The notes under the pieces are model-generated. The model was not told the DNA's origin. It was given only the letters and a program-made list of their open reading frames with translations, and did no database searches. From contig JARRNG010000020.1 of assembly GCA_037385265.1 (NCBI GenBank), positions 1 to 51,514 of the forward strand: a DNA stretch of 51,514 bases. Direction: 5' to 3'. Source of the DNA: Nitrospirota bacterium. Its GTDB lineage: Bacteria > Nitrospirota > Thermodesulfovibrionia > Thermodesulfovibrionales > JdFR-86. Shown here piece after piece: positions 2,757 to 44,154 of the stretch; positions within the stretch are counted from its first letter, which is position 1; each line of letters opens with the position of its first letter. The translations under genes were made by a program, and so were the position numbers.

Positions 2757-3821
2757 TCAGGGTATCTCCATGGGGATCGACTTGACCCCCGGGAGCCTGA
2801 GCCCAAGTGTATTATAACAGCCGGGGCGTGGCCTCTCCTCGACGACGGCAAGGAGGGCGCGGGCATGACAGTGCTCGACTTTAAAACCCCTCTCCCTGGC
2901 CTGTTCCGCGGCCGAGCGAGCCAGTCTTGCCGCTTCAGCCTTCCTGCTTCCTAGGTATTTCAGTTCCGCAAACCCGAGGTTACAGTATATGATGCCCCGG
3001 GGGTCCCTGGTCTTCCTGAAGTGGAGCAGGGCGTCCCTAAGGTATCTCTCCGCAAGGCGGTTCCTGCCCTGGGCCATGTGGGTCTTCCCCATGCTCCAGA
3101 GGGTGTACGAGTAGCTTACGATGTCGCCCATGCCCCTGTAGAGAGCGATGGCGCGCCGGAAATGCGCCTTGGCCCCTTCGAGGTCTCCCTGCATCCTCAG
3201 GGCGTTTCCTATGCCGCAGTGGGAATAGGCGGTTCCGAAAGTGTCCCTCAGGCGCTTGAAGAGCCCGTTGGCCTTCTCGTAGTAGTTCAGGGAATCCTTG
3301 AAGCGCCCCCTCACGCGGCTCGAGCCGCCCATGCCGCAGAGGCAGTACCCCACCCCGTGGTCGTCGCCGAGCCTTTCGAAGGCCTTCCCGGCAGTTCTGA
3401 AGGTCTTGAAGGCCTCTTTGATGTCGCCCTTTATGCGGAGTGTGCCGGCCAGGGCCCACTGGGTAAAAGCCGTCCCCTCGCGGTCGCCCCCGCGGGAGTA
3501 AGAGGCGCGGGCCTTCTTGAGAAGCGGCATGGCCTTTCTCCAGTCACCCAGGGCCCTTCGCGCGAGGGCGAGCCCCACCGTGGCATCCAGGGCCGCCACG
3601 GCGTCGCCGGACTGCCGGGCCGACTTCATGGCGCGCTCGTAGTATTTCGAGGCCTCGACGAAGTCGCCCACCATGCGGGAGGTGTCGGCCACGGCGAGGA
3701 GGCAGCGCAGCCTGCCCTCTCCGCGGCTCCCCCTCAGGCACTGCCTGTAGAGGGCTATGGCGTCGCGGTACTTCGAGCGTTTCCTGAAGGCTTCGGCCCG
3801 CGCGAAGGCGTCCTCATTCAT
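2757..3821 (-). CDS. tetratricopeptide (TPR) repeat protein
   Basis: 354-aa ORF with reiterated ~34-aa A/Y/G-patterned repeats (e.g. ALYRQCL, YYERAMK, YYEKANGLF, HFRRAIALY). Confidence 0.7.
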   Translation of the reverse strand: MNEDAFARAEAFRKRSKYRDAIALYRQCLRGSRGEGRLRCLLAVADTSRMVGDFVEASKYYERAMKSARQSGDAVAALDATVGLALARRALGDWRKAMPLLKKARASYSRGGDREGTAFTQWALAGTLRIKGDIKEAFKTFRTAGKAFERLGDDHGVGYCLCGMGGSSRVRGRFKDSLNYYEKANGLFKRLRDTFGTAYSHCGIGNALRMQGDLEGAKAHFRRAIALYRGMGDIVSYSYTLWSMGKTHMAQGRNRLAERYLRDALLHFRKTRDPRGIIYCNLGFAELKYLGSRKAEAARLARSAAEQARERGFKVEHCHARALLAVVEERPRPGCYNTLGLRLPGVKSIPMEIP

Positions 3822-6630: not shown

Positions 6631-7071
6631 ATGAGATTAATGAGGTTAGCGTTACTTGTCTCGATAACACTGGCTCTGATCGCAACGGCGGTCTTCGCCG
6701 TGGAGGGCTCCGCCGAAAGGGGCAAGGAGCTTTTCATGGACCCCGGTTTCGCCGGGGGCAATAAGGCGTGCAACAGCGCTAAGTGCCATCCCGGTGGCAA
6801 GGGCCTCGAGGAGGCGGGCACGAAGAAGAGCTTCACCATCTTCAACCAGAAGGTGGACAGCCTTGAGAAGGCCGTCAACCTGTGCATCGTCGGGGCAAAC
6901 AAGGGAAAAGCCATTCCCGAGGACTCTCAGGATATGAGTGACATCGTGGCCTATATCAAGTCCCTGGCGGTCGCCGAGACCCCGGGCTACGAGGCGCCAA
7001 GCTACGGGACCCCGGGCTACGGAGCGCCCGGCTACGGAGCGCCCGGTTACGGAACACCCGGAAAAAAGTAG
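6631..7071 (+). CDS. secreted mono-haem c-type cytochrome-like protein with CX4CH motif and Pro-Gly-Tyr repeat tail
   Basis: Signal peptide MRLMRLALLVSITLALIATAVFA. Class-I-like layout: GKELF helix, CNSAKCH, C-terminal DIVAYIKSL helix. Tail is PGYEAPSYGTPGYGAPGYGAPGYGTPG. Confidence 0.65.
   Translation: MRLMRLALLVSITLALIATAVFAVEGSAERGKELFMDPGFAGGNKACNSAKCHPGGKGLEEAGTKKSFTIFNQKVDSLEKAVNLCIVGANKGKAIPEDSQDMSDIVAYIKSLAVAETPGYEAPSYGTPGYGAPGYGAPGYGTPGKK
6982..7062 (+). repeat. 15-nt tandem coding repeat (PGYGA units) in the cytochrome C-terminus
   Basis: Roughly five imperfect copies of ccgggctacggagcg. Confidence 0.8.
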
Positions 7072-7125: not shown

Positions 7126-7905
7126 ATGCCCATATATCTCTTTAAGTCCATTCTCTCGATATTCATCGTCCTATCCGCGCTCCTCGCCGTCTTTTCGATG
7201 TTCGAGGTCCTCGGGCGCCCCGAGAGGAAGTTCTCGGCGGCGAAGATGACGCGCCTTCACAAAATAAACGGCTACATCTTCCTGCTGCTCTCTCTTTACA
7301 TCGCGTATTTTTGCCTGGGAATCCTCATGGGTACGAGGGGAGAGCTTTCCTCCCGGGTGGTCTTCCACTCGGTCTTCGCCCTCTCGGTGTTTCTCCTTCT
7401 GACCCTGAAGATTGCCATAAACAGAATATATAGGCAGTTCTACGGTCAGCTGAAGTCCCTGGGGCTCGTGCTGGCGCTTCTGGCCTTTGGGCTCGTGGGC
7501 ACCTCGGGGGGATATTACATGGTCGTCACCAAGCTCGGCACCGACCTGAGCATCGAGAGGGCCCTAAGAAGGTCGCCGGAGTCGGCCCGGGAGGCGCGTC
7601 TCAGGCTTCCCGAAGGGCCCCGGGCGCCTATTAAAATCAGCACGGACCCCAAAGACATAAAGCGTGGCAAGGAAATCTACGATTCAGAATGTACGCTGTG
7701 CCATGACCCCAATAGCAGGGAGACGATTATCGGACCGGGGCACAAGGGACTGCTCAAGAGGGACAAGCTTCCCGTCAGCGGCAGGCCCGCCACTCCGGAA
7801 AACGTGGTTCGACAGCTTCGCACGCCTTATAACAGGATGCCGTCGTTCGATTATCTCTCGGACGAGGAGATAAAGGACCTGCTGGCGTATCTGAATACAC
7901 TATGA
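7126..7905 (+). CDS. membrane-anchored c-type cytochrome (about 4 TM helices plus a C-terminal CXXCH domain)
   Basis: Hydrophobic N-terminal ~150 aa with conserved His residues (LHKINGY, FHSVF). C-terminal GKEIYDSECTLCHD ... MPSFDYLSDEEIKDLLAYLNTL is typical of a class I cytochrome c. Confidence 0.7.
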   Translation: MPIYLFKSILSIFIVLSALLAVFSMFEVLGRPERKFSAAKMTRLHKINGYIFLLLSLYIAYFCLGILMGTRGELSSRVVFHSVFALSVFLLLTLKIAINRIYRQFYGQLKSLGLVLALLAFGLVGTSGGYYMVVTKLGTDLSIERALRRSPESAREARLRLPEGPRAPIKISTDPKDIKRGKEIYDSECTLCHDPNSRETIIGPGHKGLLKRDKLPVSGRPATPENVVRQLRTPYNRMPSFDYLSDEEIKDLLAYLNTL

Positions 7906-7918
7906 GAGAGGTGACATC

Positions 7919-8131
7919 ATGAAGAAGAACGTAGGCAAGTATGACAGGGCCGTGAGGTACGTTATAGCGGCGGCCCTATACGTGGCCGGCCTGACAGCGC
8001 CGGTGGGTGAGGGCGTTAGAGCGCTTCTGTTCGTCCTCACGGGGGTGGCCGTCCTTACTGCGATTTTCGGTTTTTGACCGCTTTACAAGGTGCTCGGGAT
8101 AAGCACCCACAAAGAGTCAGAAAGCCGATAA
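7919..8131 (+). CDS. DUF2892 (YgaP-like transmembrane domain) small membrane protein. Needs read-through of the in-frame TGA at 8075-8077 (candidate selenocysteine); it is 52 aa if TGA is a stop.
   Basis: Not on the ORF track. AGGTGA Shine-Dalgarno lies 5 nt upstream of the ATG at 7919. My translation is MKKNVGKYDRAVRYVIAAALYVAGLTAPVGEGVRALLFVLTGVAVLTAIFGF-TGA-PLYKVLGISTHKESESR-TAA. As I recall it, the family hallmark is G-F/W-C-P-L-Y-x-L-L-G-I. Here TGA occupies the Cys position and the motif continues in frame. Confidence 0.55.
8081..8114 (+). promoter_or_regulatory. SECIS-like stem-loop downstream of the in-frame TGA
   Basis: Lower stem CTTT (8081-8084) pairs with AAAG (8111-8114). Internal loop follows. 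Upper stem GGTGCT (8089-8094) pairs with AGCACC (8102-8107). The 7-nt apical loop is CGGGATA. The upper stem starts 11 nt after the TGA. Confidence 0.4.
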
Positions 8132-8220
8132 GGCGCGCTTCTCACTGCCTATAGCCACATCCTGCGTGGCCGGAGCGGCGCGTTTCGCTGGCCTCCGGCT
8201 CGCGGACGCCACGACGCTCC

Positions 8221-8261
8221 TTGACATCACGGCGGGGACGAAGTATAATGTGCATATGCAC
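8221..8261 (+). promoter_or_regulatory. consensus sigma-70 promoter with an abutting 12-bp palindromic operator
   Basis: TTGACA (8221-8226), 17-nt spacer, TATAAT (8244-8249). The perfect palindrome GTGCATATGCAC (8250-8261) follows immediately. It lies 23 nt upstream of the DUF134 gene start. Confidence 0.55.
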
Positions 8262-8283
8262 ATAAGCACCGCGAGCGCCCTCC

Positions 8284-8619
8284 ATGCCTAGGCCGAGAAA
8301 GGACCGCATATGCGGATGCGAGTTTGCCGGTCGCGCCTTTAAGCCAACGGGAAAGCCCATGCCGGAACTCGAAAAGGTCACGCTCTACCGCGACGAGCTC
8401 GAGGCCCTAAGGCTCTGCGACAGCATGGGGCTGACGCAGAGCGAGGCCGGCACGAGGATGGGGGTCTCGAGGGGGACCGTCCAGAGGATACTCGCAAGCG
8501 CGAGAAAGAAGTCCGCGACGGCGCTCGCCAAGTGCATGGCAATCTTGCTCGAGGAGCCCCCGGGCTGTGCGGAGACGCGTCGCCGGGATCGGGCTAATGA
8601 AAAGAAAGGGAGGATTTGA
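8284..8619 (+). CDS. DUF134 (UPF0251) family putative DNA-binding protein
   Basis: Family-typical start MPRPRKDR. HTH-like segment GLTQSEAGTRMGVSRGTVQRILASARKK. Confidence 0.85.
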   Translation: MPRPRKDRICGCEFAGRAFKPTGKPMPELEKVTLYRDELEALRLCDSMGLTQSEAGTRMGVSRGTVQRILASARKKSATALAKCMAILLEEPPGCAETRRRDRANEKKGRI

Positions 8620-9024: not shown

Positions 9025-9399
9025 ATGGCTGACAAGAAGTTCGTTTTCATCCTTACGTCCTCGTACGACAGGCCGGAGGTCGCCGCCGGGGCCATGCAGC
9101 TCGCCTCTAACATGCGCGCCTTCGACACCGAGGTGGACTTCTTCCTCATGGACAACGCCGCCCTCCTGGCCAAGAAGGGTTTCGCCGAGACCATAGTCTG
9201 GCAAAAAGAGGGTCAGTTCTCGCCCATACACGAGCTGATGAAGACGCTCGTCGAGGACTTCGGAGTCAAGTTCTACATCTGCGCCTCCTGCGTGAAGCAT
9301 AACGGTCTGGACAAAGCCGAGCTGATAGAGAACTCCGAGATAAAGCCGGGGTCCTTTCTCGGCGAGATGCTCCTCGAGAGGCAGGGCCTTACTTTCTGA
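9025..9399 (+). CDS. DsrE/DsrF-like sulfur-relay family protein
   Basis: 124 aa. FVFILTSSYDRPEVAAGAMQLA, FFLMDNAALLA and FYICASCV follow the DsrE-fold pattern. AAAGGAG Shine-Dalgarno. Confidence 0.75.
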   Translation: MADKKFVFILTSSYDRPEVAAGAMQLASNMRAFDTEVDFFLMDNAALLAKKGFAETIVWQKEGQFSPIHELMKTLVEDFGVKFYICASCVKHNGLDKAELIENSEIKPGSFLGEMLLERQGLTF

Positions 9400-19385: not shown

Positions 19386-19443
19386 TTCTTTAATATAAGG
19401 GAGTTTTGTTGACAGCACACGCATGTATCTGGTATGTTTAGCC

Positions 19444-20217
19444 ATGGGAAAGAGAGCGGCCTGCGCCCTCGTCATTTTATGTTGCCTTTTAATTCCGGGG
19501 CTTTCTTTTGGAGCTGACGTCTACGGCCTCAGGCCGTCCGCGCCCTTCGGAGTTTTCACAACCTTGTCCGCCCAGAGCCCGGCCAAGGGAGAGATGGCCT
19601 TCTCGGGCACGTATGAGACGATATTTAACAGCCCCTTTTACAGGTTCGGAGGGAATTTTTCCTATGGCCTTCTGGACAGGGTGGAGCTTTCCTTGAGCGT
19701 CTCAGAGCAGGAGGACGGCTTCGAGGACATAGCCCTCGGCGTGAAACACAGGTTCATCGACGAGGGCGCCACCGGCCTTTCGCTGGCCTATTTCGTTACG
19801 GCCTCTCTGGACACGGGAGACAATGCTGTGAGCACTGACGGGAGGTTCGGGGGCGGCCTTATCATGAGCAAGAAGATCGGACCAGTCTTCAGTCACACCA
19901 ACATCATGTATGCGGTGCCGGGGGACTCGGACCTGTACAGCGAAATTGGGTTCTCCACTGGCCTTGTCTTTTCCGCGGCCCATAACCTGTGGCTCCTCGG
20001 CGAGCTGGATGTCAGATCAAGCCATTTCTCGAACGAGATCGACGTCTTCGAACCGAAGCTCGGCTATCGGGTCAGGGTGGTCGAAAATCTTTATATCGAC
20101 TTGGGCGTGGGCGTGGATCTCAAGGGAGACCCGGCGGAATACAGGTTCATGACCGCCTTGTCTTTCGGCTATCCTTTCAGGCGGGAGGTCCAACGCATCT
20201 ACGAGGACAGGCGATAA
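19444..20217 (+). CDS. putative outer-membrane beta-barrel protein
   Basis: Signal peptide MGKRAACALVILCCLLIPGLSFGA. Alternating beta-strand pattern and a C-terminal aromatic-rich strand. The track ORF starts at 19423, and the start is uncertain. Confidence 0.5.
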   Translation: MGKRAACALVILCCLLIPGLSFGADVYGLRPSAPFGVFTTLSAQSPAKGEMAFSGTYETIFNSPFYRFGGNFSYGLLDRVELSLSVSEQEDGFEDIALGVKHRFIDEGATGLSLAYFVTASLDTGDNAVSTDGRFGGGLIMSKKIGPVFSHTNIMYAVPGDSDLYSEIGFSTGLVFSAAHNLWLLGELDVRSSHFSNEIDVFEPKLGYRVRVVENLYIDLGVGVDLKGDPAEYRFMTALSFGYPFRREVQRIYEDRR

Positions 20218-26914: not shown

Positions 26915-27585
26915 TTCACTTCCCTGCCCAGAAGCTCGAGCACCTGCCTGGCGTCGGACCAGACGTCGTGCTTGGCCCTCGGGTTCCTGAGCAGATACGC
27001 CGGGTGGAAGGTCGGCATGAGGGCGATGCCCTGGAAGGCATGGAAATGCCCCCTGAGCCTCGATATCGGCGTGTTCAGCCCGGTGAGCGTATGGGACGAG
27101 ACGCGACCGAGGGAAACTATCACCCTGGGGGAGATAATCTCCACCTGCTTCTTCAGGAAGGGCAGGCATGCGCTTATCTCGTCCGCTTCGGGGTCGCGGT
27201 TGCCCGGCGGGCGGCTCTTTATGATGTTCGCGATGTATACGTCTTCGCGCTTGAAGCCCATCTTGTTTATCAGGCTTGTGAGGAGCTTTCCGGCGTCTCC
27301 CACGAAGGGCCTGCCCTGGAGGTCCTCCTCGCGTCCCGGGGCCTCGCCTATGAACATTATCTCAGCCTCCGGGCTTCCCTCCCCGAAGACGAGGTTCTTC
27401 CTGCCCTTTCCGAGCTTGCACCTCTGGCAGTCGCCCATCTCCAAGCGAAGGGCCTCAAGCGCCCGGGCCTTTTCCGCGCCCGTCATCCTGGCGGCCCCCG
27501 GCACCTCTATGGGCAGGCGCTTGAAGCCGAGGGCCTCGTAATAGCTGAGCACCGTCCTGACTTCCCCGGTGGAGGAAAGCCTCAT
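26911..27585 (-). CDS. uracil-DNA glycosylase, family 4
   Basis: CQRC Fe-S Cys pair and GEAPGREEDLQGRPFVG motif. The ATG at 27585 forms an ATGA overlap with the nadK stop. The track ORF starts at 27597. Confidence 0.85.
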   Translation of the reverse strand: MRLSSTGEVRTVLSYYEALGFKRLPIEVPGAARMTGAEKARALEALRLEMGDCQRCKLGKGRKNLVFGEGSPEAEIMFIGEAPGREEDLQGRPFVGDAGKLLTSLINKMGFKREDVYIANIIKSRPPGNRDPEADEISACLPFLKKQVEIISPRVIVSLGRVSSHTLTGLNTPISRLRGHFHAFQGIALMPTFHPAYLLRNPRAKHDVWSDARQVLELLGREVK

Positions 27586-28384
27586 CTCTGGCCCCACTTG
27601 AGCTTGGTCCTCAGGATGTCGAAGTGATCCCTGCCTCCGGCCCGGAAGAGCGTGGCCACGTGGGGGGACTTCTCGACAATGATGGTGTCGCCCGACATGA
27701 GAGTGTAGCCGACCTGGCCGTCAAGCGAAAGAAGCACGCCGTCGCTATGCGACTTGAGGGTCATCTCTATCTCGGCGTCGTCCGGCAGCACGAGGGGCCT
27801 GTTCGTGAGAGTGTGAGGGCTTATGGGCGTGAGCACGAGGGCCGGGAGGGTAGGGTAGAGTATGGGGCCGCCGGCCGAGAGGGAATAAGCCCGAACGCCT
27901 TGTTCACCCTCACTTCCAGGTCGACTATCCGCACCATGGCGCCCTTGTTTATCACTATGTCGTTGAGGGCCGTGTAGCGCGAGATCTCCTCCCCCTCCCG
28001 GGTGAGTCGGGCCGAGAGCATCATCCTCTCCTCGGTGGGACATTCGCCCCTTATTATCTTCTCCATGGCCTCAAAGATCTCGTCCGTGTATATCTCGGTG
28101 ATGAAGCCCAGGCCCCCCAGGTTGACCCCCAGCACGGGGACGCCCGCCGGCGCCACCAGCCTCGCCGTGCCCAGCATGGTGCCGTCGCCCCCGAGGACCA
28201 CCACCATGTCCACGGAGCTTGGAAACTCGGAGCGCGGAATGCTCTGGGCCCCCTCGAAGGAGGCGATTTCTTCCTCCTCCAGGTACACCTCGATCTTCCG
28301 CTCGCGGAGCCAGGGGACGAAATCCCGGAGGATTTCCGGCGGCTCCGGCCTGTCAGGCTTGCAGATTATCCCAATCCTCTTCAT
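27582..28384 (-). pseudogene. nadK: NAD kinase, disrupted by an internal deletion and frameshift
   Basis: The N-terminal frame (28384 down to 27821) has VVLGGDGTML and GVNLGGLGFIT. The C-terminal frame (28043 down to 27582) has AYSLSAGGPILYP...TPISPHTLTNRP. The frames switch near 27885-27905. The DGLIVSTPTGST segment is not encoded in any frame. Confidence 0.8.
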
Positions 28385-33776: not shown

Positions 33777-35773
33777 TTAAGCTATCTTCTCGAGATTCGC
33801 AAACTTGAGGGAGAGTCTCTTGATGCCGTAGTCGGGGAAATTCACGGTTATTTTCTGCTCGTCGCCTTCGCCGTAACAGTCCCTGACCACTCCCACGCCC
33901 CACTTGGTGTGCTTGACCCTGCAGCCCACCGAATACGGGGCAGGACGGCCCTTGGCCTTATGCCGGCGCAGGCCCTTGCCCGAGGAGACCCCCTTTAGGG
34001 ACTTGTCTATCTTATTGCAGATTTCTTCGGGAAGGTCGTTCAGGAACCGAGAGATCTCCTGCTCCTGGACCTTGGAAAACAGCCTCCTCTTCCTCGCGCC
34101 GCTTAGGAAAAGCATGTCCCGTGCCCTGGTGATGCCTACGTAGAGGAGCCTGCGCTCCTCCGAGACCTCCTTCGGGTCCTGGGCCTTGAAGTAGGGAAGG
34201 ACGCCTTCCTCGATGCCGACGATGCCGACCACGGGGAACTCCAGGCCCTTGGCGCTGTGGAGGGTCATTAGCGATATGGCGTTGTCAGAGCAGTCTTCGT
34301 CGAGGTTTGTGACCAGCGAGAGCTCGTCCACGAAATTCTTCGGCTCCCTGCCCTCGGCCGACAGGATGAATTCCTCGACAATCTCCGCCCGGTCCTCGTT
34401 CACGGACTTGGCGTAGCCGCTCTTGTCGTATATATGCCTCAGCATGTCCGCCGAGTCCTTGTACTTTCCGGAGGCTATTCCGTCTATGAGAGAAACGAAG
34501 CCCTCGAGCTTTTCCTTGACGGAGGCCGTTATGCTGTTGGCCTTTATAACGTTCTTGATAGAGGCGTAAAGGCTGATGGACTTCTTCTTTGCGTTCTGCT
34601 CGAGTTTCGAAAGGGTGGAGGCGCCGACGCCCCTCGACGGGGTGTTGATGACCCGCCTCAGGCTCACGTTGTCGTCACGGTTGAGGGCGAGCCTCATGTA
34701 AGCCGTCAGGTCCTTGATCTCCTTGCGGCGGTAGAAGCTAACGCCGCCGAGAACCCTGTAAGGCATCTTTTCGCGCCTCAGGGCCTCCTCGATGGCCCTC
34801 GACTGCGCGTTTATGCGGTAGAGGACGGCAAAGTCCCTGTAGTCGTATTCGCCCTTGAGGTAAAGCTCCTTTATCAGCTTGGCGACGTGCTTTGCCTCCT
34901 CAATCTCGGTGGAGAACCAGCACTGGGATATCTTCTCGCCCTCGGGCCTTGAGCTCCAGAGCTTCTTGTCCCTGCGCTTGACGTTGCTCTTGATGATCAC
35001 GTCCGAGATATGGATGATGTTCTTCGTTGAGCGGTAGTTCTGTTCGAGTTTTATGACCGTGGCATCTGGGAAGTCCTTCTCGAAGTTCAGGCGTACTGCG
35101 CGGTGTTGGTATCCTGGAACTCGTCGACCAGGATATGCGAGAACATTTCCCGGTATTTCCCCATCTCCTCCGGATGTTCCCTGAAGAGCTGTGTGGTGAG
35201 CAGTATGAGGTCGTCGAAGTCGACGGCGTTGCAGCGCTTGAGCTCGTCCTGGTAGCGGATGTATACCCTGGCCAGCTTCTCCTCGAAGCCGAACCCGTCG
35301 CAGTCCGAAAGGTAGGAGTCGGGGGTTACGCAGCACGACTTCAGGGAGCTTATCCTCGACAGGATGCCCTTGTACAGGGCCTCGTAGATCTTGAACTCCT
35401 TGAGGATGTGCCTTATGAGGTTGCTCTGGTCGTCTTCATCGTAAATGGTGAAGTCCGTCTGGTAGCCGAGCTTCCCTATCTCCCTGCGCAGAATCTTGTT
35501 GCACTGGGAATGAAAGGTGCCTATCCAGGTATTCCTGAGGTCCTTCCTGAGGAGCAGGGAGATGCGCTCCTTCATCTCCTCGGCGGCCTTGTTCGTGAAG
35601 GTGACGGCCAGCATGGAGCGGGGTCCGTGCTTCTTTGCGAGGTACGCGAATTTGTGCGTGATTACCCTGGTCTTGCCGCTTCCGGCGCCGGCCAGGATAA
35701 GGAGAGGCCCTTCGCAATGAGTTATGGCCTCTTTTTGCTGGGGGTTCAACTCTTCGAGTATGGGGTCCGCCAT
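33777..35773 (-). pseudogene. UvrD/PcrA/Rep-type SF1 DNA helicase, disrupted by an internal deletion and frameshift
   Basis: The 5' frame has LNPQQKEAI, Walker A GAGSGKT and ILVDEFQDTNTAQYA, then TGA at 35087. The 3' frame resumes at LNFEKDFPDATVIKLEQNYRS. Motif III (VGDxDQSIYxFRGA, about 33-35 codons) is absent from every frame. Confidence 0.8.
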
Positions 35774-35831
35774 GAGAATGAAGTATTTTAACAAATTACA
35801 GTTGGCATAGTCCAGCAATACATAGGGAGGG

Positions 35832-37658
35832 CTATTCCACCGTGACGCTCTTGGCGAGGTTCCGGGGCTGGTCGATGTTACAGCCCCTGAGGACGCCGAC
35901 GCGGTAAGCCAGGAGTTGCAGCGGCACGGTAAGCGCAAGCGGCATGGCCAGGGGTGTGCAGTCCGGGACCTCGATGACGTGGTCGGCGAATTCCCGGAGC
36001 TCGGCGGCGCCCCCCGAGGTCACGGCGATGATGCTGCCGTCCCTGCTCTTGATTTCCTGTATGTTTGAAAGCACTTTCTCGAACAGGCCATCCCTGGGGG
36101 CGAGGGCGATGACCGGGAAGCCCTCGCTTATGAGGGCTATGGGCCCGTGCTTCATCTCTCCGGCCGGGTAGGCCTCGGCGTGGATATAGGATATTTCCTT
36201 GAGTTTGAGGGCCCCCTCCAGGGCAATCGGGTAGTTTATTCCCCTTCCTATAAAGAGGAAGCCGTTCCGGTTGGCGTAGGCCTTGGCAATGTCCTCGACG
36301 GCCCCGTCCACGGCCAGGGTCTTTTCTATCTTGTCGGGCATTGCCAGGAGCTCCGAAAGAAGCTCCCGATTCCTCGCGTCGCCTATGGTCCCCCTGGAGC
36401 GTCCGAGGGCCACGGCGAGCAGATAGAGGGCCGCAAGCTGCGCCGTGAAGGCCTTGGTGGAGGCTACCCCTATCTCGGGTCCCGAGTGGGTATAGAACAC
36501 CGAATGGGCCTCCCTGGAAGCGGTGCTCCCTGTGACGTTGCATATGCTCAGCGTCCTGGCCCCGAGCTTGCGAGCCGTTCTCTGGGCGGCCAGGGTGTCG
36601 GCCGTCTCGCCCGACTGGGTTATGGATACGAAGAGCCCCTCGCTCCCCACTATGGGGTTTCTGTAACGGAATTCGGAGGCTATGTCCACCTCCACCGGCA
36701 TTCGGGCCAGTTCCTCTATGAGGTATTTCCCCACAATCCCGGCATGCCAGGAAGTGCCGCAGGCCACGATGTAAACCTTGCTTATCTTCCTAAGCTCCTC
36801 CTTGGTCAGGTGGAACTCGTCGAGGTTGACCTCGCCGGTCTCCACGTTGATGCGGCCGGCGAGGGTGTCGGCCAGGGAGCGGGGCTGTTCGAATATCTCC
36901 TTGAGCATGAAGTGTCTGTAGCCGCCCTTTTCCGCCATGGCGCTGCTCCAGGTAATGTGGCTGACTTCCTTTTCGATCTTCTCGCCCCCGGCGCTATAGA
37001 TCGAATAGCCGTCCTTCTCGATGACCACAAGCTCGCCGTCCTCGATGAAGACCACATCCCGCGTGCGGCCGAGGAACGCCGGTATGTCGGAGGCGAGGAA
37101 GTACTCCCCGTCTCCCAGGCCGAGCACCAGGGGGCTGTCCTTTCGCGCGCCCACCACCTTGCCGGGCTCTCTGTCGCTGATAACGGCAAGGGCATAGGCC
37201 CCCCTGATGCCCTTTACGGTCTCTCTTACGGCCTCCTCTAGGGAGCGCCCCGCGGAGTGCTTGTTTATGAGGTGGCTGATTATCTCGGTGTCGGTTTCGG
37301 AGGTGAAGACGAAGCCCTCGGCCTTGAGCGTCCTCTTTAGCTCCATGTAGTTTTCCACTATCCCGTTATGGACCAGCACGATGCCGTCGGACCTGTGGGG
37401 ATGGGCGTTTTCGGTGGAAGGCCTTCCGTGGGTGGCCCACCTGGTGTGGCCGATGGCCGTGGTGCTTTCGGGCTTGTCGTCCGAGAAGAGGGAAGCCAGG
37501 TCGCTTATCTTTCCCTTGCACCGCCTTACGTCTATAGAGTCGCCCGCGAAGAAGGCGATGCCCGCTGAGTCATAGCCCCGGTATTCGAGACGCTTTAGGG
37601 CCTCCAGGGTTACGGAGATGGCGTCGCTATGGCCGGTGTAACCGATGATTCCGCACAT
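35832..37658 (-). CDS. glmS: glutamine--fructose-6-phosphate aminotransferase (isomerizing)
   Basis: MCGIIGY Ntn-Cys start, two SIS domains, and C-terminal KSVTVE. Confidence 0.95.
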   Translation of the reverse strand: MCGIIGYTGHSDAISVTLEALKRLEYRGYDSAGIAFFAGDSIDVRRCKGKISDLASLFSDDKPESTTAIGHTRWATHGRPSTENAHPHRSDGIVLVHNGIVENYMELKRTLKAEGFVFTSETDTEIISHLINKHSAGRSLEEAVRETVKGIRGAYALAVISDREPGKVVGARKDSPLVLGLGDGEYFLASDIPAFLGRTRDVVFIEDGELVVIEKDGYSIYSAGGEKIEKEVSHITWSSAMAEKGGYRHFMLKEIFEQPRSLADTLAGRINVETGEVNLDEFHLTKEELRKISKVYIVACGTSWHAGIVGKYLIEELARMPVEVDIASEFRYRNPIVGSEGLFVSITQSGETADTLAAQRTARKLGARTLSICNVTGSTASREAHSVFYTHSGPEIGVASTKAFTAQLAALYLLAVALGRSRGTIGDARNRELLSELLAMPDKIEKTLAVDGAVEDIAKAYANRNGFLFIGRGINYPIALEGALKLKEISYIHAEAYPAGEMKHGPIALISEGFPVIALAPRDGLFEKVLSNIQEIKSRDGSIIAVTSGGAAELREFADHVIEVPDCTPLAMPLALTVPLQLLAYRVGVLRGCNIDQPRNLAKSVTVE

Positions 37659-41321: not shown

Positions 41322-41356
41322 AGTCCAATTATTCTAACATATGTATATAATAAATC

Positions 41357-42292
41357 ATGATTTTTGCAGTCGTCGACGTCGGCTCAAATACGCTTAGGCT
41401 CCTCGTCTCCGACGTTTCGGGGCGGGGGGCCAGGCCCCTGAGGTACGAGCGCGTGATAACGAGGCTCGGAGCCGGCCTCGGGGAAAGCGGCCTTCTCGGA
41501 GAAAAAGCTTCGGAAAACAGCCTCGCCGCACTTTCGAGGTTCGCCGAAATCATCCGCCAATCGGGGACCGAACGCACCTGGTGCGTGGGCACGAGCGCCC
41601 TGAGGGAGGCCCGGAACGCCAGGGACTTCGTAGAGAGGGCGAGGCGCGAGGCCGGCCTCGAGGTGGAGATAGTGGACGGTGAAAGGGAAGCCCGGCTGAC
41701 GGCCAGGGGGGTGCTGTCGGCCATAGACGGGCCCCGTGAGTATCTGATCATGGATATCGGCGGAGGCAGCACCGAGTTCATCTATTCCACCGATGAGCCA
41801 TCCGGCGCCCGACACCTGACGGTGCCGGTGGGGGTGGTGAAGATGGTGGAGGCCCACATGCATGCCGACCCACCGACGGATGAAGAGCTCGCGGCCCTGC
41901 GGGAAGCGGCGCGGGGGGTCTCGGTTGTCCTGAAAGACGAGTTCGGGGGTGGGGCGAAAGATGGCGCCAGGCTCGTCGGAACGGCGGGAACGGCGACCAC
42001 CCTGGCGGCTATCGACCTCGGGCTTGAGCGCTTCGATGCCGGGAGGGTCCATAACCACGTCATACCCCTCGCGCGGCTCGAAGAGATGGCCTCCTCCCTC
42101 TGCTCCATGCCGGCGTCGGAAAGGGCGGGCGTAAAAGGGCTTGAGCCCCAGCGCGCAGACTTGATTATACCGGGGATAATACTTACAATTAGCGTAATGA
42201 CGGCGTTTTCCTTCCCGGAAATCCTCATAAGCAGCGCCGGACTGCTTGAGGGAATGGCGGAAGAGCTCTACGAAAGGACGATCCGCCGGTAA
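41357..42292 (+). CDS. Ppx/GppA-family phosphatase (exopolyphosphatase / pppGpp phosphohydrolase-like)
   Basis: AVVDVGSNTLRLLV and MDIGGGSTEF ASKHA-fold motifs. 311 aa. Confidence 0.85.
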   Translation: MIFAVVDVGSNTLRLLVSDVSGRGARPLRYERVITRLGAGLGESGLLGEKASENSLAALSRFAEIIRQSGTERTWCVGTSALREARNARDFVERARREAGLEVEIVDGEREARLTARGVLSAIDGPREYLIMDIGGGSTEFIYSTDEPSGARHLTVPVGVVKMVEAHMHADPPTDEELAALREAARGVSVVLKDEFGGGAKDGARLVGTAGTATTLAAIDLGLERFDAGRVHNHVIPLARLEEMASSLCSMPASERAGVKGLEPQRADLIIPGIILTISVMTAFSFPEILISSAGLLEGMAEELYERTIRR

Positions 42293-42300
42293 TAGGCACA

Positions 42301-43668
42301 GTGGACAGGTTCATAGAGGGCAGGGCAGCTATCCCGATTATAGATCATCTCAGGGATTCGGTCGTCATCGCTTCGAGGAATGGAAAGATCGTCGAGGCAA
42401 ACGCGGCCTTTCTGAGCCTCGTCGGGACTTCGAAGGAAAAGGTTGTCGGCAGGGACTCAAGCGACGTGGAGCCCCTCGAAACGCTCGCCAACGTCATGAC
42501 GTCGACGGTGCTTCACAGGATGAAACACAGAGAGAGGTTTGTCTACAGGGGGCGTTCTCTCGAGGCCACCGTGACCCCTATTGTCATTGAGGGGGAAGTG
42601 GCCTACGTCCTCGTCGTGCTGGTGGACATCTCGGCGTTCGTCAACCTCGAGGCGCAGTACCTCAGGAAGAACAGGGAGCTCATCATAACCAACACTTTGT
42701 CGAGCGCATTCATAAGCTCAGGCGACATCGACTCGGTCTTCAGCGACCTGCTGGAGAAGGCCCTCATAATAGCCCACCTCACCCTGGGGTGGATAATGCT
42801 GAGGGACGGGGACGGGCACGAGATGAAGGTGTCAAATGGCCTTTCGGCGGACTTGAGGAAGCGCATCCAAAGGGGGAACCTCAACCCCCTCCTGGAGAAG
42901 GCGTTGTCCTTTCGCGCCCCCCTCCATGTGCTTGAGAAGGCCGACACGATGAAGGACGAGGTGCTGAGTGGGGAGGGCATTGCCTTCCTGGTCGTTATTC
43001 CCCTGCGGACCGGGGCCGAAGTGCTCGGATGCCTCGTGCTTGCGAGCAGGAAGGAGACCGTGTTCGACTTCGACCTGGCCTCGCTCCTGTCCCTCATAGG
43101 CAACAACCTCTCGATGATAGCCGACAAGGTGAGGCTCTTTCAGGAGACCGAGCGCCTGGCGATAACCGACGGCCTCACGGGACTTTACAATATCAGGCAC
43201 TTCTACGCCGAGTTGGACAAGGAGATTGCCAGGGCCGAGAGGTACTCGAGTTCTTTTTCCATAGCGCTCTTCGACGTAGACGACTTCAAAGTCATAAACG
43301 ACACCTTCGGCCATCAGGCCGGCGACGAGGTGCTTCGGGACGTGGCCGCTATGATTCTGCACGTCTCGCGAAAGACGGACGTAGTGGCAAGATACGGGGG
43401 CGAAGAGTTTATCACCCTTCTGCCCAATACCCCCAAGAAGGAGGCCTTCCACCACGCTTGCAGAATCAGGGATGCCGTGGAGCTCAAGCGATATCTGGGT
43501 TCCAAATCCGTTTCGCTGACCATCAGCGGCGGGGTAGCCTCCTATCCTGTGGACGCGAATGTCGCAAAGAACCTTTTGTCCGCTGCCGACGTGGCCTTGT
43601 ACAGTGCCAAGGCCGCGGGCAAGAAGAGCGTTCATTGCTATGGGCGCGATGGCTCGGGAAGATGCTGA
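42301..43668 (+). CDS. PAS/GAF-containing diguanylate cyclase (GGDEF)
   Basis: ITDGLTGLYNIRHF, FDVDDFKVINDTFGHQAGD and RYGGEEF. An RKTD I-site lies 5 residues before GGEEF. GTG start. Confidence 0.85.
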   Translation: MDRFIEGRAAIPIIDHLRDSVVIASRNGKIVEANAAFLSLVGTSKEKVVGRDSSDVEPLETLANVMTSTVLHRMKHRERFVYRGRSLEATVTPIVIEGEVAYVLVVLVDISAFVNLEAQYLRKNRELIITNTLSSAFISSGDIDSVFSDLLEKALIIAHLTLGWIMLRDGDGHEMKVSNGLSADLRKRIQRGNLNPLLEKALSFRAPLHVLEKADTMKDEVLSGEGIAFLVVIPLRTGAEVLGCLVLASRKETVFDFDLASLLSLIGNNLSMIADKVRLFQETERLAITDGLTGLYNIRHFYAELDKEIARAERYSSSFSIALFDVDDFKVINDTFGHQAGDEVLRDVAAMILHVSRKTDVVARYGGEEFITLLPNTPKKEAFHHACRIRDAVELKRYLGSKSVSLTISGGVASYPVDANVAKNLLSAADVALYSAKAAGKKSVHCYGRDGSGRC

Positions 43669-43674
43669 TGCGGC

Positions 43675-44154
43675 TTGGGTCGGAGGACTGTTGCCGTGAA
43701 GATTAGGAAGGCGAAGTCTTCCGACGTTCGGACGGTGCACCGCCTGATCAACTCCATGGCCGCCGAGGACCAGATGCTTCCCCGGTCCCTGAACGACCTG
43801 TACGAAAATTTGAGGGACCTTTCCGTGTGCGAGGACGAGGGGGCGATAAAAGGAGTTTGCGCGCTCCATGTCTTGTGGGAGGACCTTGCCGAGATAAGAA
43901 GCCTCGCTATAGCGGGCGACTCACGCAAGAAGGGCCTGGGCGGCCTCCTGGTGAAGCGCGCCCTGAAGGAGGCCAAGGCGCTGGGCATAAGGAAGGTCTT
44001 CGCCCTTACATACCAGCCGCAGTATTTCATCGAGAAGTTCAAGTTCAGGGAGGCCGACAAGGCGGAGCTCCCCCAGAAAATATGGGGAGAATGTCTGAGG
44101 TGCCACAAATATCCCGAATGCGACGAGACCGCTGTCATAAAGGAAATAAGATAG
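43675..44154 (+). CDS. GNAT-family N-acetyltransferase (short ArgA-like)
   Basis: Acetyl-CoA motif RKKGLGGLLVKRAL and a C-terminal Cys cluster CLRCHKYPEC. The start could be the GTG at 43696. Confidence 0.75.
   Translation: MGRRTVAVKIRKAKSSDVRTVHRLINSMAAEDQMLPRSLNDLYENLRDLSVCEDEGAIKGVCALHVLWEDLAEIRSLAIAGDSRKKGLGGLLVKRALKEAKALGIRKVFALTYQPQYFIEKFKFREADKAELPQKIWGECLRCHKYPECDETAVIKEIR

Follow-up and report, generated by a model that had tools for sequence, protein, structure and literature searches.

A DUF2892/YgaP-like membrane protein of Nitrospirota with an in-frame UGA at the invariant cysteine position is a candidate member of a new selenoprotein family

Contig JARRNG010000020.1 of a Nitrospirota bacterium (assembly GCA_037385265.1), analyzed over its whole 51,514 nucleotides (nt) and called the window here, carries a short open reading frame (ORF) that runs into a TGA codon, continues in the same frame, and ends at a TAA codon. 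The locus raises the question of whether this TGA terminates a 52-residue peptide or is read as selenocysteine (Sec) within a 70-residue protein of the DUF2892 family (PF11127, now YgaP-like_TM), as an original prediction based on the DNA letters had proposed. Sequence-level tests strongly support the latter, and we assign a rough probability of 0.88 to the reading that the gene at 7919-8131 encodes a 70-residue selenoprotein with two transmembrane (TM) helices, in which the UGA at 8075-8077 would specify Sec in place of the invariant cysteine of the family. The parts of the gene and of its putative Sec insertion sequence (SECIS) are as follows.

7908 to 7911, forward strand: Shine-Dalgarno motif GAGG, 7 nt before the ATG, read from the sequence
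7919, forward strand: ATG start codon of the Sec-DUF2892 gene, read from the sequence
7919 to 8074, forward strand: codons 1 to 52, the ORF up to the UGA, ending in ...TAIFGF
8075 to 8077, forward strand: in-frame UGA, residue 53, proposed Sec, aligned with the invariant cysteine of the family
8078 to 8131, forward strand: codons 54 to 70 (residues PLYKVLGISTHKESESR) and the TAA stop codon at 8129-8131
8089 to 8107, forward strand: upper stem-loop, with 5' arm GGUGCU (8089-8094), loop CGGGAUA (8095-8101), and 3' arm AGCACC (8102-8107)
8081 to 8114, forward strand: lower stem around the upper stem-loop, with CUUU (8081-8084) pairing with AAAG (8111-8114)

The coordinates given in the original prediction for the Shine-Dalgarno-preceded ORF just past a membrane cytochrome gene, and for its TGA and TAA codons, hold, and the frame that it quoted for 10 residues after the TGA extends to 17. 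The first 52 codons would encode a basic N terminus (MKKNVGKYDRAVR), a first TM helix, the loop APVGEG, and a second TM helix, so that termination at the UGA yields a stub of 52 residues and read-through a product of 70. Hydropathy maxima at about residues 15 to 25 and 34 to 51 of the longer product point to two TM helices separated by a short loop, and an AlphaFold2 model of the cysteine homologue P0006, of moderate confidence (predicted local distance difference test score of 68.5), places helices at residues 5 to 25 and 32 to 49. A sequence search of Protein Data Bank chains gave no real match, and Foldseek with the model of the cysteine homologue gave none at E ≤ 0.001, as expected for a fold that is a simple helical hairpin.

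With cysteine substituted for residue 53, the 70-residue product aligned end to end with PF11127 (positions 1 to 65 of the 66 in the profile) at 66.3 bits and an E value of 2.8e-18, while the 52-residue stub scored 36 bits against a gathering cutoff of 25.3 bits. The corresponding read-through products of loci L013, L042, and L045 scored 85.1, 68.6, and 52.3 bits, respectively. Residues F52, C53, P54, L55, and Y56 are invariant in alignment A1 and show little or no variation in alignments of full-length homologues overall, and the column occupied by the UGA is cysteine in all 49 aligned homologues. A search with the A1 profile retrieved 6,633 family members, the best 120 of which were all cysteine forms of 67 to 95 residues. 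The UGA thus falls where the original prediction had placed it, at the conserved cysteine of the family; the hallmark that it had given, G-F/W-C-P-L-Y-x-L-L-G-I, was roughly right, as the G-F-C-P-L-Y portion stands but the tail actually reads x-[PV]-[FL]-[GK]-[IL]-[SN]-T. The window protein has G-F-x-P-L-Y with a TGA codon at the cysteine place, and it would have this invariant feature of PF11127 only on condition that the UGA specifies Sec, which is functionally analogous to cysteine. In other respects, cysteine-containing DUF2892 proteins such as P0006, P0009, and those annotated as YgaP family membrane protein resemble the window protein in size (67 to 75 residues), two-TM layout, N terminus (MKKNVG...D..R), and C-terminal motif (GF-x-PLY...ST), and differ in having a cysteine codon where the window gene has UGA. 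Closely related proteins can also differ in form: the stub P0161 (...LFGT) pairs with the cysteine form P0160 (...LFGTCPLYTVLGISTEEKEK), and the Sec form of a Planctomycetota metagenome-assembled genome (MAG; locus L013) resembles the cysteine form P0007, closely so at the C terminus, a pair that may represent a recent switch from Sec to cysteine or from cysteine to Sec.

Conservation on either side of the UGA was compared among 14 distinct genes, namely, the window gene, L001, L002, L005, L011, L015, L023, L013, L041, L042, L043, L045, L046, and a variant of L004. Of these, L011 comes from a Nitrospirales MAG, L015 from a Nitrospirota MAG, L023 from a metagenome contig, and L013 from the Planctomycetota MAG; all four were obtained by DNA pattern scans for G-F-UGA-P-L-Y...T whose hits were mostly chance matches (5 of 8 in genome contigs and 15 of 18 in metagenome contigs). 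Five others are more divergent stubs (L041, L042, L043, L045, and L046). The TGA, an in-frame extension of 13 to 22 codons, and a subsequent stop codon were present in 14 of 14, and the pattern PL[YW]xVLG[IFL][SN]T (FWWKVLGIST in L045) holds for the initial 11 codons past the UGA, although the parts N-terminal to the UGA are only 35 to 83% identical among related genes. The closest database relatives of the window protein are all 52-residue stubs (P0001, P0002, and P0003, with 98, 83, and 60% identity), and the DNA of the closest stubs shares with the window the TGA and the 17-codon extension closed by a stop codon. Compared with its 60%-identical orthologue at L002, the window gene shares 60% of nucleotides over codons 1 to 52, 97% over the 36 nt past the UGA, and 86% over the post-UGA codons as a whole, falling to 28% over the 60 nt beyond the final stop; the changes in the post-UGA codons are five synonymous and no nonsynonymous ones, including a serine switch from AGC to TCG.

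These patterns bear on the possibility that the UGA is a true stop codon, in which case the 52-residue two-helix peptide would be functional as such and the downstream conservation would reflect a regulatory or stabilizing hairpin in the 3' untranslated region. Gene callers and the Prokaryotic Genome Annotation Pipeline (PGAP) do report exactly the 52-residue product, as had been anticipated, and this stub passes the Pfam threshold by itself. Moreover, release factor 2 (RF2) competes with Sec insertion, and recoding is put at 30 to 40% in E. coli (PMC4513850); because this competition always operates, some 52-residue product is probably made anyway. A simple stop codon nevertheless fits poorly with a frame and a second stop that are kept 13 to 22 codons past the UGA in every gene compared, with an extension whose first 11 codons match the C-terminal motif of the family at the amino acid level, with changes that are purely synonymous beyond the hairpin, and with conservation that ends at the second stop codon. 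The stub would also be devoid of CPLY, and the family has no other invariant motif. As for the hairpin, a role as a transcription terminator was ruled out, since no U-tract lies downstream. That the UGA is a true stop is very improbable.

Under Sec decoding, the hairpin downstream of the UGA would be the signal for insertion. It has the elements described in the original prediction, i.e., a GGUGCU/AGCACC upper stem that starts 11 nt after the UGA, a 7-nt G-containing loop, and a 4-bp lower stem, and 17 nt separate the UGA from the apical loop. The minimum free energy fold adds a further pairing of UGAC (8075-8078) with GUCA (8116-8119), and RNAfold gave -17.2 kcal/mol for positions 8075 to 8135 (z = -2.66), with 2 of 200 shuffled sequences folding equally well. 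According to the model of Zhang and Gladyshev as given in PMC13188914, the consensus bacterial SECIS has its apical loop 16 to 37 nt from the UGA and a G as the first or second base of the loop. The resemblance to bacterial SECIS elements that had been suggested agrees with this model, with a spacing of 17 nt and G at loop positions 2 to 4 (CGGGAUA). As in bacterial SECIS elements generally, the stem-loop is located within the coding region just past the UGA, with G at loop position 2 and another G after it. The SECIS of E. coli fdhF differs in having an unrelated sequence, and the window hairpin, a putative SelB target, shows unusual invariance over a deep clade.

All Nitrospirota-type Sec genes that were fetched contain, in a constant place, one copy of the 19-nt sequence GGUGCU-CGGG(A/U)UN-AGCAC(C/U). 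The variable positions are the last loop base (A, U, or C) and bases outside the stem. The hairpin was unchanged in L045 even though the otherwise invariant PLY is replaced by FWW, and the Planctomycetota gene L013 has a variant form, with CGGUCUG as its loop and a single C-A mismatch. Among 12 aligned sequences, four of the six upper-stem pairs are constant; G-U replaces G15-C33 in two, and L013 has lost the C19-G29 pair. The lower stem is less conserved (pair 9-38 is UA in five sequences and CG in two) and provided only weak hints of covariation by RNAalifold and pair counting. The stem is built from Val-Leu and Ser-Thr codons, and for this reason Sec forms read [KR]-V-L-G-I-S-T after PLY, while cysteine forms usually read x-P-F-G-x-S-T and typically lack the hairpin. 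If the reading is true, this codon-invariant element would be a natural, portable minimal SECIS and a case in which RNA structure dictates protein sequence. Being near-identical while the proteins have diverged to about 35% identity, it would also offer a clean case for studies of SelB recognition and of how an RNA signal constrains coding sequence, and a search model for new members.

Several observations weigh against Sec decoding or temper it. No compensatory covariation was found in the upper stem by RNAalifold and pair counting over 9 to 12 sequences, because this stem is invariant, and the RNA evidence therefore rests on suppressed synonymous change: among codons for the same amino acid, third positions were identical in 136 of 193 cases (70%) over the 11 codons after the UGA and in 77 of 235 (33%) over the 30 codons before it, in a comparison whose sequence pairs are not independent and whose p-value is indicative only. 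The complementarity of the stem is in part an automatic consequence of Val (GUN) and Thr (ACN) codons. The hairpin matched no Rfam family, either in the window at the gathering threshold or over positions 7900-8300 at E ≤ 10, and the scan returned only a chance match to a long noncoding RNA and no SECIS family. The cysteine homologue at L038 can form a similar 6-bp stem: the gene at 3001-3216, which encodes the cysteine form P0007 (CPLYTVLGLNTC), has a potential hairpin, GGUGUU-GGGAUUG-AACACC, at the SECIS position, which may be the relic of a Sec ancestor. Annotation of the whole 51.5-kb window and tRNA scans of the loci found no selA, selB, selD, or tRNA-Sec in the window or in any fetched locus. 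The neighborhoods of Sec genes vary between lineages, and functional inference is therefore weak.

The contig is also not error-free, as it holds at least two frameshifted housekeeping genes. The NAD kinase gene (27582-28384, reverse strand) is split into an ORF for the N-terminal domain (27821-28384) and one for the C-terminal part (27582-28043) in different frames, probably owing to an assembly indel error, or else as a pseudogene. The UvrD/PcrA gene (33777-35938, reverse strand) is likewise split into an N-terminal UvrD-helicase ORF (35087-35938) and an ORF for the C-terminal domains in another frame (33777-35336). Such defects would lend some credit to the idea that the DUF2892 gene is itself a pseudogene, or that its TGA stands for a TGC or TGT misread in sequencing or assembly. 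Nonetheless, more than 11 contigs of the species group, assembled independently of one another (JGI, ENA, Logan, and NCBI data), have this TGA, as do 13 further distinct genes, and purifying selection acts on both flanks of the UGA, so that this explanation is effectively refuted and the TGA is not a read error. As separate observations on the same contig, dxr (13317) and cca (49361) begin part-way into their Pfam profiles, and a mechanical scan for other in-frame TGAs in the window listed 67 candidates, a yield that is uninformative at 59% GC.

In the proposed mechanism, the ribosome would reach the UGA while the hairpin at 8089-8107, 11 nt downstream, is still folded. SelB-GTP-Sec-tRNA(Sec), bound to the G-rich apical loop, would then deliver Sec in competition with RF2, and translation would add 17 residues before ending at the TAA at 8129. 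Reassignment of UGA in the genetic code was excluded, as TGA is the ordinary stop codon of 19 of the 42 Pfam-supported genes of the window, including the gene immediately upstream, and the commonest one in the contig. Another mechanism could be read-through by a standard tRNA, either a near-cognate Trp or Cys tRNA or a suppressor, with the hairpin acting as a generic stimulator. The lack of Sec machinery in the window is compatible with this scenario, and selection on the full-length frame would fit any read-through mechanism. However, the UGA lies exactly at an invariant, presumably reactive cysteine, which is the classic Sec/Cys signature; the place of the hairpin and its G-rich loop suit the SelB-dependent model; the upper stem-loop of the minimal E. 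coli fdhF SECIS likewise begins 11 nt after the UGA; and UGA is otherwise a stop codon here. In addition, Sec machinery is documented for the phylum, selB and selC having been described in Nitrospirae (PMC8124441; also PMC13188914), and on this phylum-level support the source organism would be Sec competent. In groundwater members of Nitrospirae, the selC gene overlaps with selB. Read-through by a standard tRNA is therefore improbable, and decoding as Sec is the reading that we retain.

The public stubs give an indication of how far the Sec-type group extends. A profile built from 26 stubs retrieved sequences of which 112 of the best 120 clusters (90% identity) end exactly before the cysteine position; 85 of these 112 are exactly 52 residues long and 27 carry spurious N-terminal extensions, while the remaining 8 of the best 120 are cysteine forms. 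An exhaustive profile search started from the stub recovered, at E ≤ 1e-3, 72 representatives of 50%-identity clusters, about 28 of which end exactly before the cysteine position; the close pair of P0161 and P0160 is among the 72. The sources of the stubs include Nitrospiraceae and Thermodesulfovibrionales MAGs. In GenBank, the window gene (MEJ2323762.1, annotated by PGAP) and MEJ2313561.1 both appear as 52-residue stubs labeled DUF2892 domain-containing protein. At least 112 public protein clusters (90% identity) would thus be truncated at residue 52 and labeled hypothetical or DUF2892, and the selenoproteome would accordingly be undercounted in Nitrospirota and in at least one Planctomycetota lineage.

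The original prediction had left open whether Sec-containing DUF2892 proteins were already catalogued. NCBIfam release 20, which holds curated selenoprotein models, gave no match at E ≤ 1, and PF11127, DUF2892, and YgaP are all absent from Table 1 of a catalogue of May 2026 that covers 119 selenoprotein families of prokaryotes (PMC13188914). The DUF2892 family goes unmentioned in the papers on deep-Sep and BSepDB, and a full-text literature search returned nothing that connects DUF2892, YgaP, or PF11127 with selenoproteins. Within these sources, the Sec-containing DUF2892 proteins are uncatalogued and, as read here, constitute a new family of selenoproteins, made by the recoding mechanism already known in bacteria. 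The catalogue does list other integral membrane proteins in which a conserved functional cysteine is replaced by Sec in some lineages, i.e., the YeeE/YedE thiosulfate transporter (GUxSG), a MerT-like transporter, and the SO_0444 Cu/Zn efflux family (Table 1, PMC13188914). These families have unrelated folds, and the window protein is far smaller (70 residues) with one Sec.

Substitution between Sec and cysteine is accepted as marking a cysteine that is redox active or catalytic, and the pairing found here would be the first functional pointer to the conserved cysteine of a very large uncharacterized family, including C159 of E. coli YgaP. It argues that residue 53 would be a reactive center for redox chemistry or sulfur transfer rather than a structural residue. 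YgaP (b2668), a membrane thiosulfate sulfurtransferase, combines a rhodanese domain with a TM domain that shares PF11127, whereas the window protein lacks a rhodanese domain, is not encoded near a rhodanese gene, and has Sec instead of cysteine. C159 of YgaP (GFC159GMARLL) aligns with U53, although the similarity is distant (hhalign E value of 5e-4 over 31 columns). In YgaP, C159 is located at the cytoplasmic end of TM helix 2 near the thiocyanate (SCN-) binding site of the dimer, and SCN- binding brings the two C159 positions nearer each other (PMC4730233). The positive-inside rule applied to the basic N terminus, together with the YgaP analogy, suggests that both termini of the window protein would be cytoplasmic, with Sec53 at the cytoplasmic end of the second TM helix. 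Nitrospirota Sec forms have a single Sec without a partner cysteine, and a diselenide between subunits could form in a Sec-DUF2892 dimer.

A DUF2892 gene of Azospira suillum is induced about 10-fold by sulfide (PMC5358917). Cysteine forms at L037 (1032-2695) and L039 (1611-4036) belong to a conserved cluster, (TauE)-rhodanese-DUF6132-DUF2892-DUF302-thioredoxin, which connects DUF2892 proteins with sulfur and thiol chemistry also where they are not fused to rhodanese. Sec genes also have thiol-redox neighbors. At L042 (7569-12752), genes for P460, Redoxin/AhpC, Fe-superoxide dismutase, a DsrC-like protein, an 84-residue ORF, Sec-DUF2892, DJ-1/PfpI, and a DsbH-type thioredoxin (DUF255) lie on one strand; a DsbH-type thioredoxin is a neighbor at L011, and P460 at L041. 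The JGI sample that contains L042 also holds a second, different Sec-type gene (L045). Given the YgaP analogy, the sulfide induction, and these thiol-redox and sulfur neighborhoods, a reactive-selenol role is the most likely one, and by analogy the protein would probably serve as a membrane-anchored thiol/selenol relay in sulfur-transfer, redox, or oxidative-stress chemistry. A broader proposal, which we regard as possible but rather doubtful, is that the invariant TM cysteine of DUF2892/YgaP proteins, including YgaP C159, acts as a catalytic nucleophile on the cytoplasmic side of the membrane, that the 70-residue proteins form dimers serving as membrane-anchored carriers of a thiophilic ligand such as persulfide or selenide, and that the selenium version of Nitrospirota is wired to c-type cytochromes or oxidative-stress genes. 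If true, selenium would be a so far unrecognized requirement in a widespread part of Nitrospirota.

In the window, the Sec gene closes a tightly spaced set of three genes and is followed by the promoter of a separate transcription unit.

6631 to 7071, forward strand: c-type cytochrome of 146 residues, first gene of the apparent operon, with weak SoxA/TsdA-like similarity
7126 to 7905, forward strand: membrane-anchored cytochrome c of 259 residues, with DUF6529 and Cytochrom_C domains
8221 to 8263, forward strand: boundary of the unit, a sigma-70 promoter matching TTGACA-17-TATAAT at 12 of 12 positions (8221-8249) and a palindrome

The Sec gene is apparently co-transcribed with the two c-type cytochrome genes. 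The 259-residue cytochrome gene stops at an ordinary TGA (7903-7905), 13 nt before the start codon of the Sec gene. It lies directly 5' of the Sec gene in the window and at L001 to L003, L005, and L007 to L009, and as a cut ORF at L004 and L006. The 146-residue cytochrome gene is syntenic at L001, L005, and L007, and its product scored 23.6 bits against PF21342, below the gathering score of 27. This protein has an unusual CX4CH motif (CNSAKCH) where CXXCH is expected, as well as C-terminal PGYG[AT] repeats.

The remaining genes of the window are housekeeping genes, and sizeable ORFs with no Pfam match are located at 19423-20217 (forward strand) and at 41329-41781, 41782-42228, and 43638-44138 (reverse strand). 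The sigma-70 promoter, about 90 nt past the stop codon of the Sec gene, opens a separate operon of DUF134, NifX-like, and DsrE-like genes. The DsrE-like protein (9025-9399, forward strand) contains a C-A-S-C motif, and DsrE-like UxxC proteins are a known selenoprotein family (Table 1, PMC13188914); with C-A-S-C in place of UxxC, the window protein would be a cysteine form of a family that has Sec elsewhere. A perfect 16-nt palindrome, ATGTGCATATGCACAT, overlaps the promoter, and both are kept at L005 and L001 within an otherwise divergent spacer. A second palindrome, CCGCATATGCGG, lies at about 8306-8317, just within the DUF134 gene, and shares the core GCATATGC. This arrangement is probably an operator for the DUF134 (UPF0251) DNA-binding protein.

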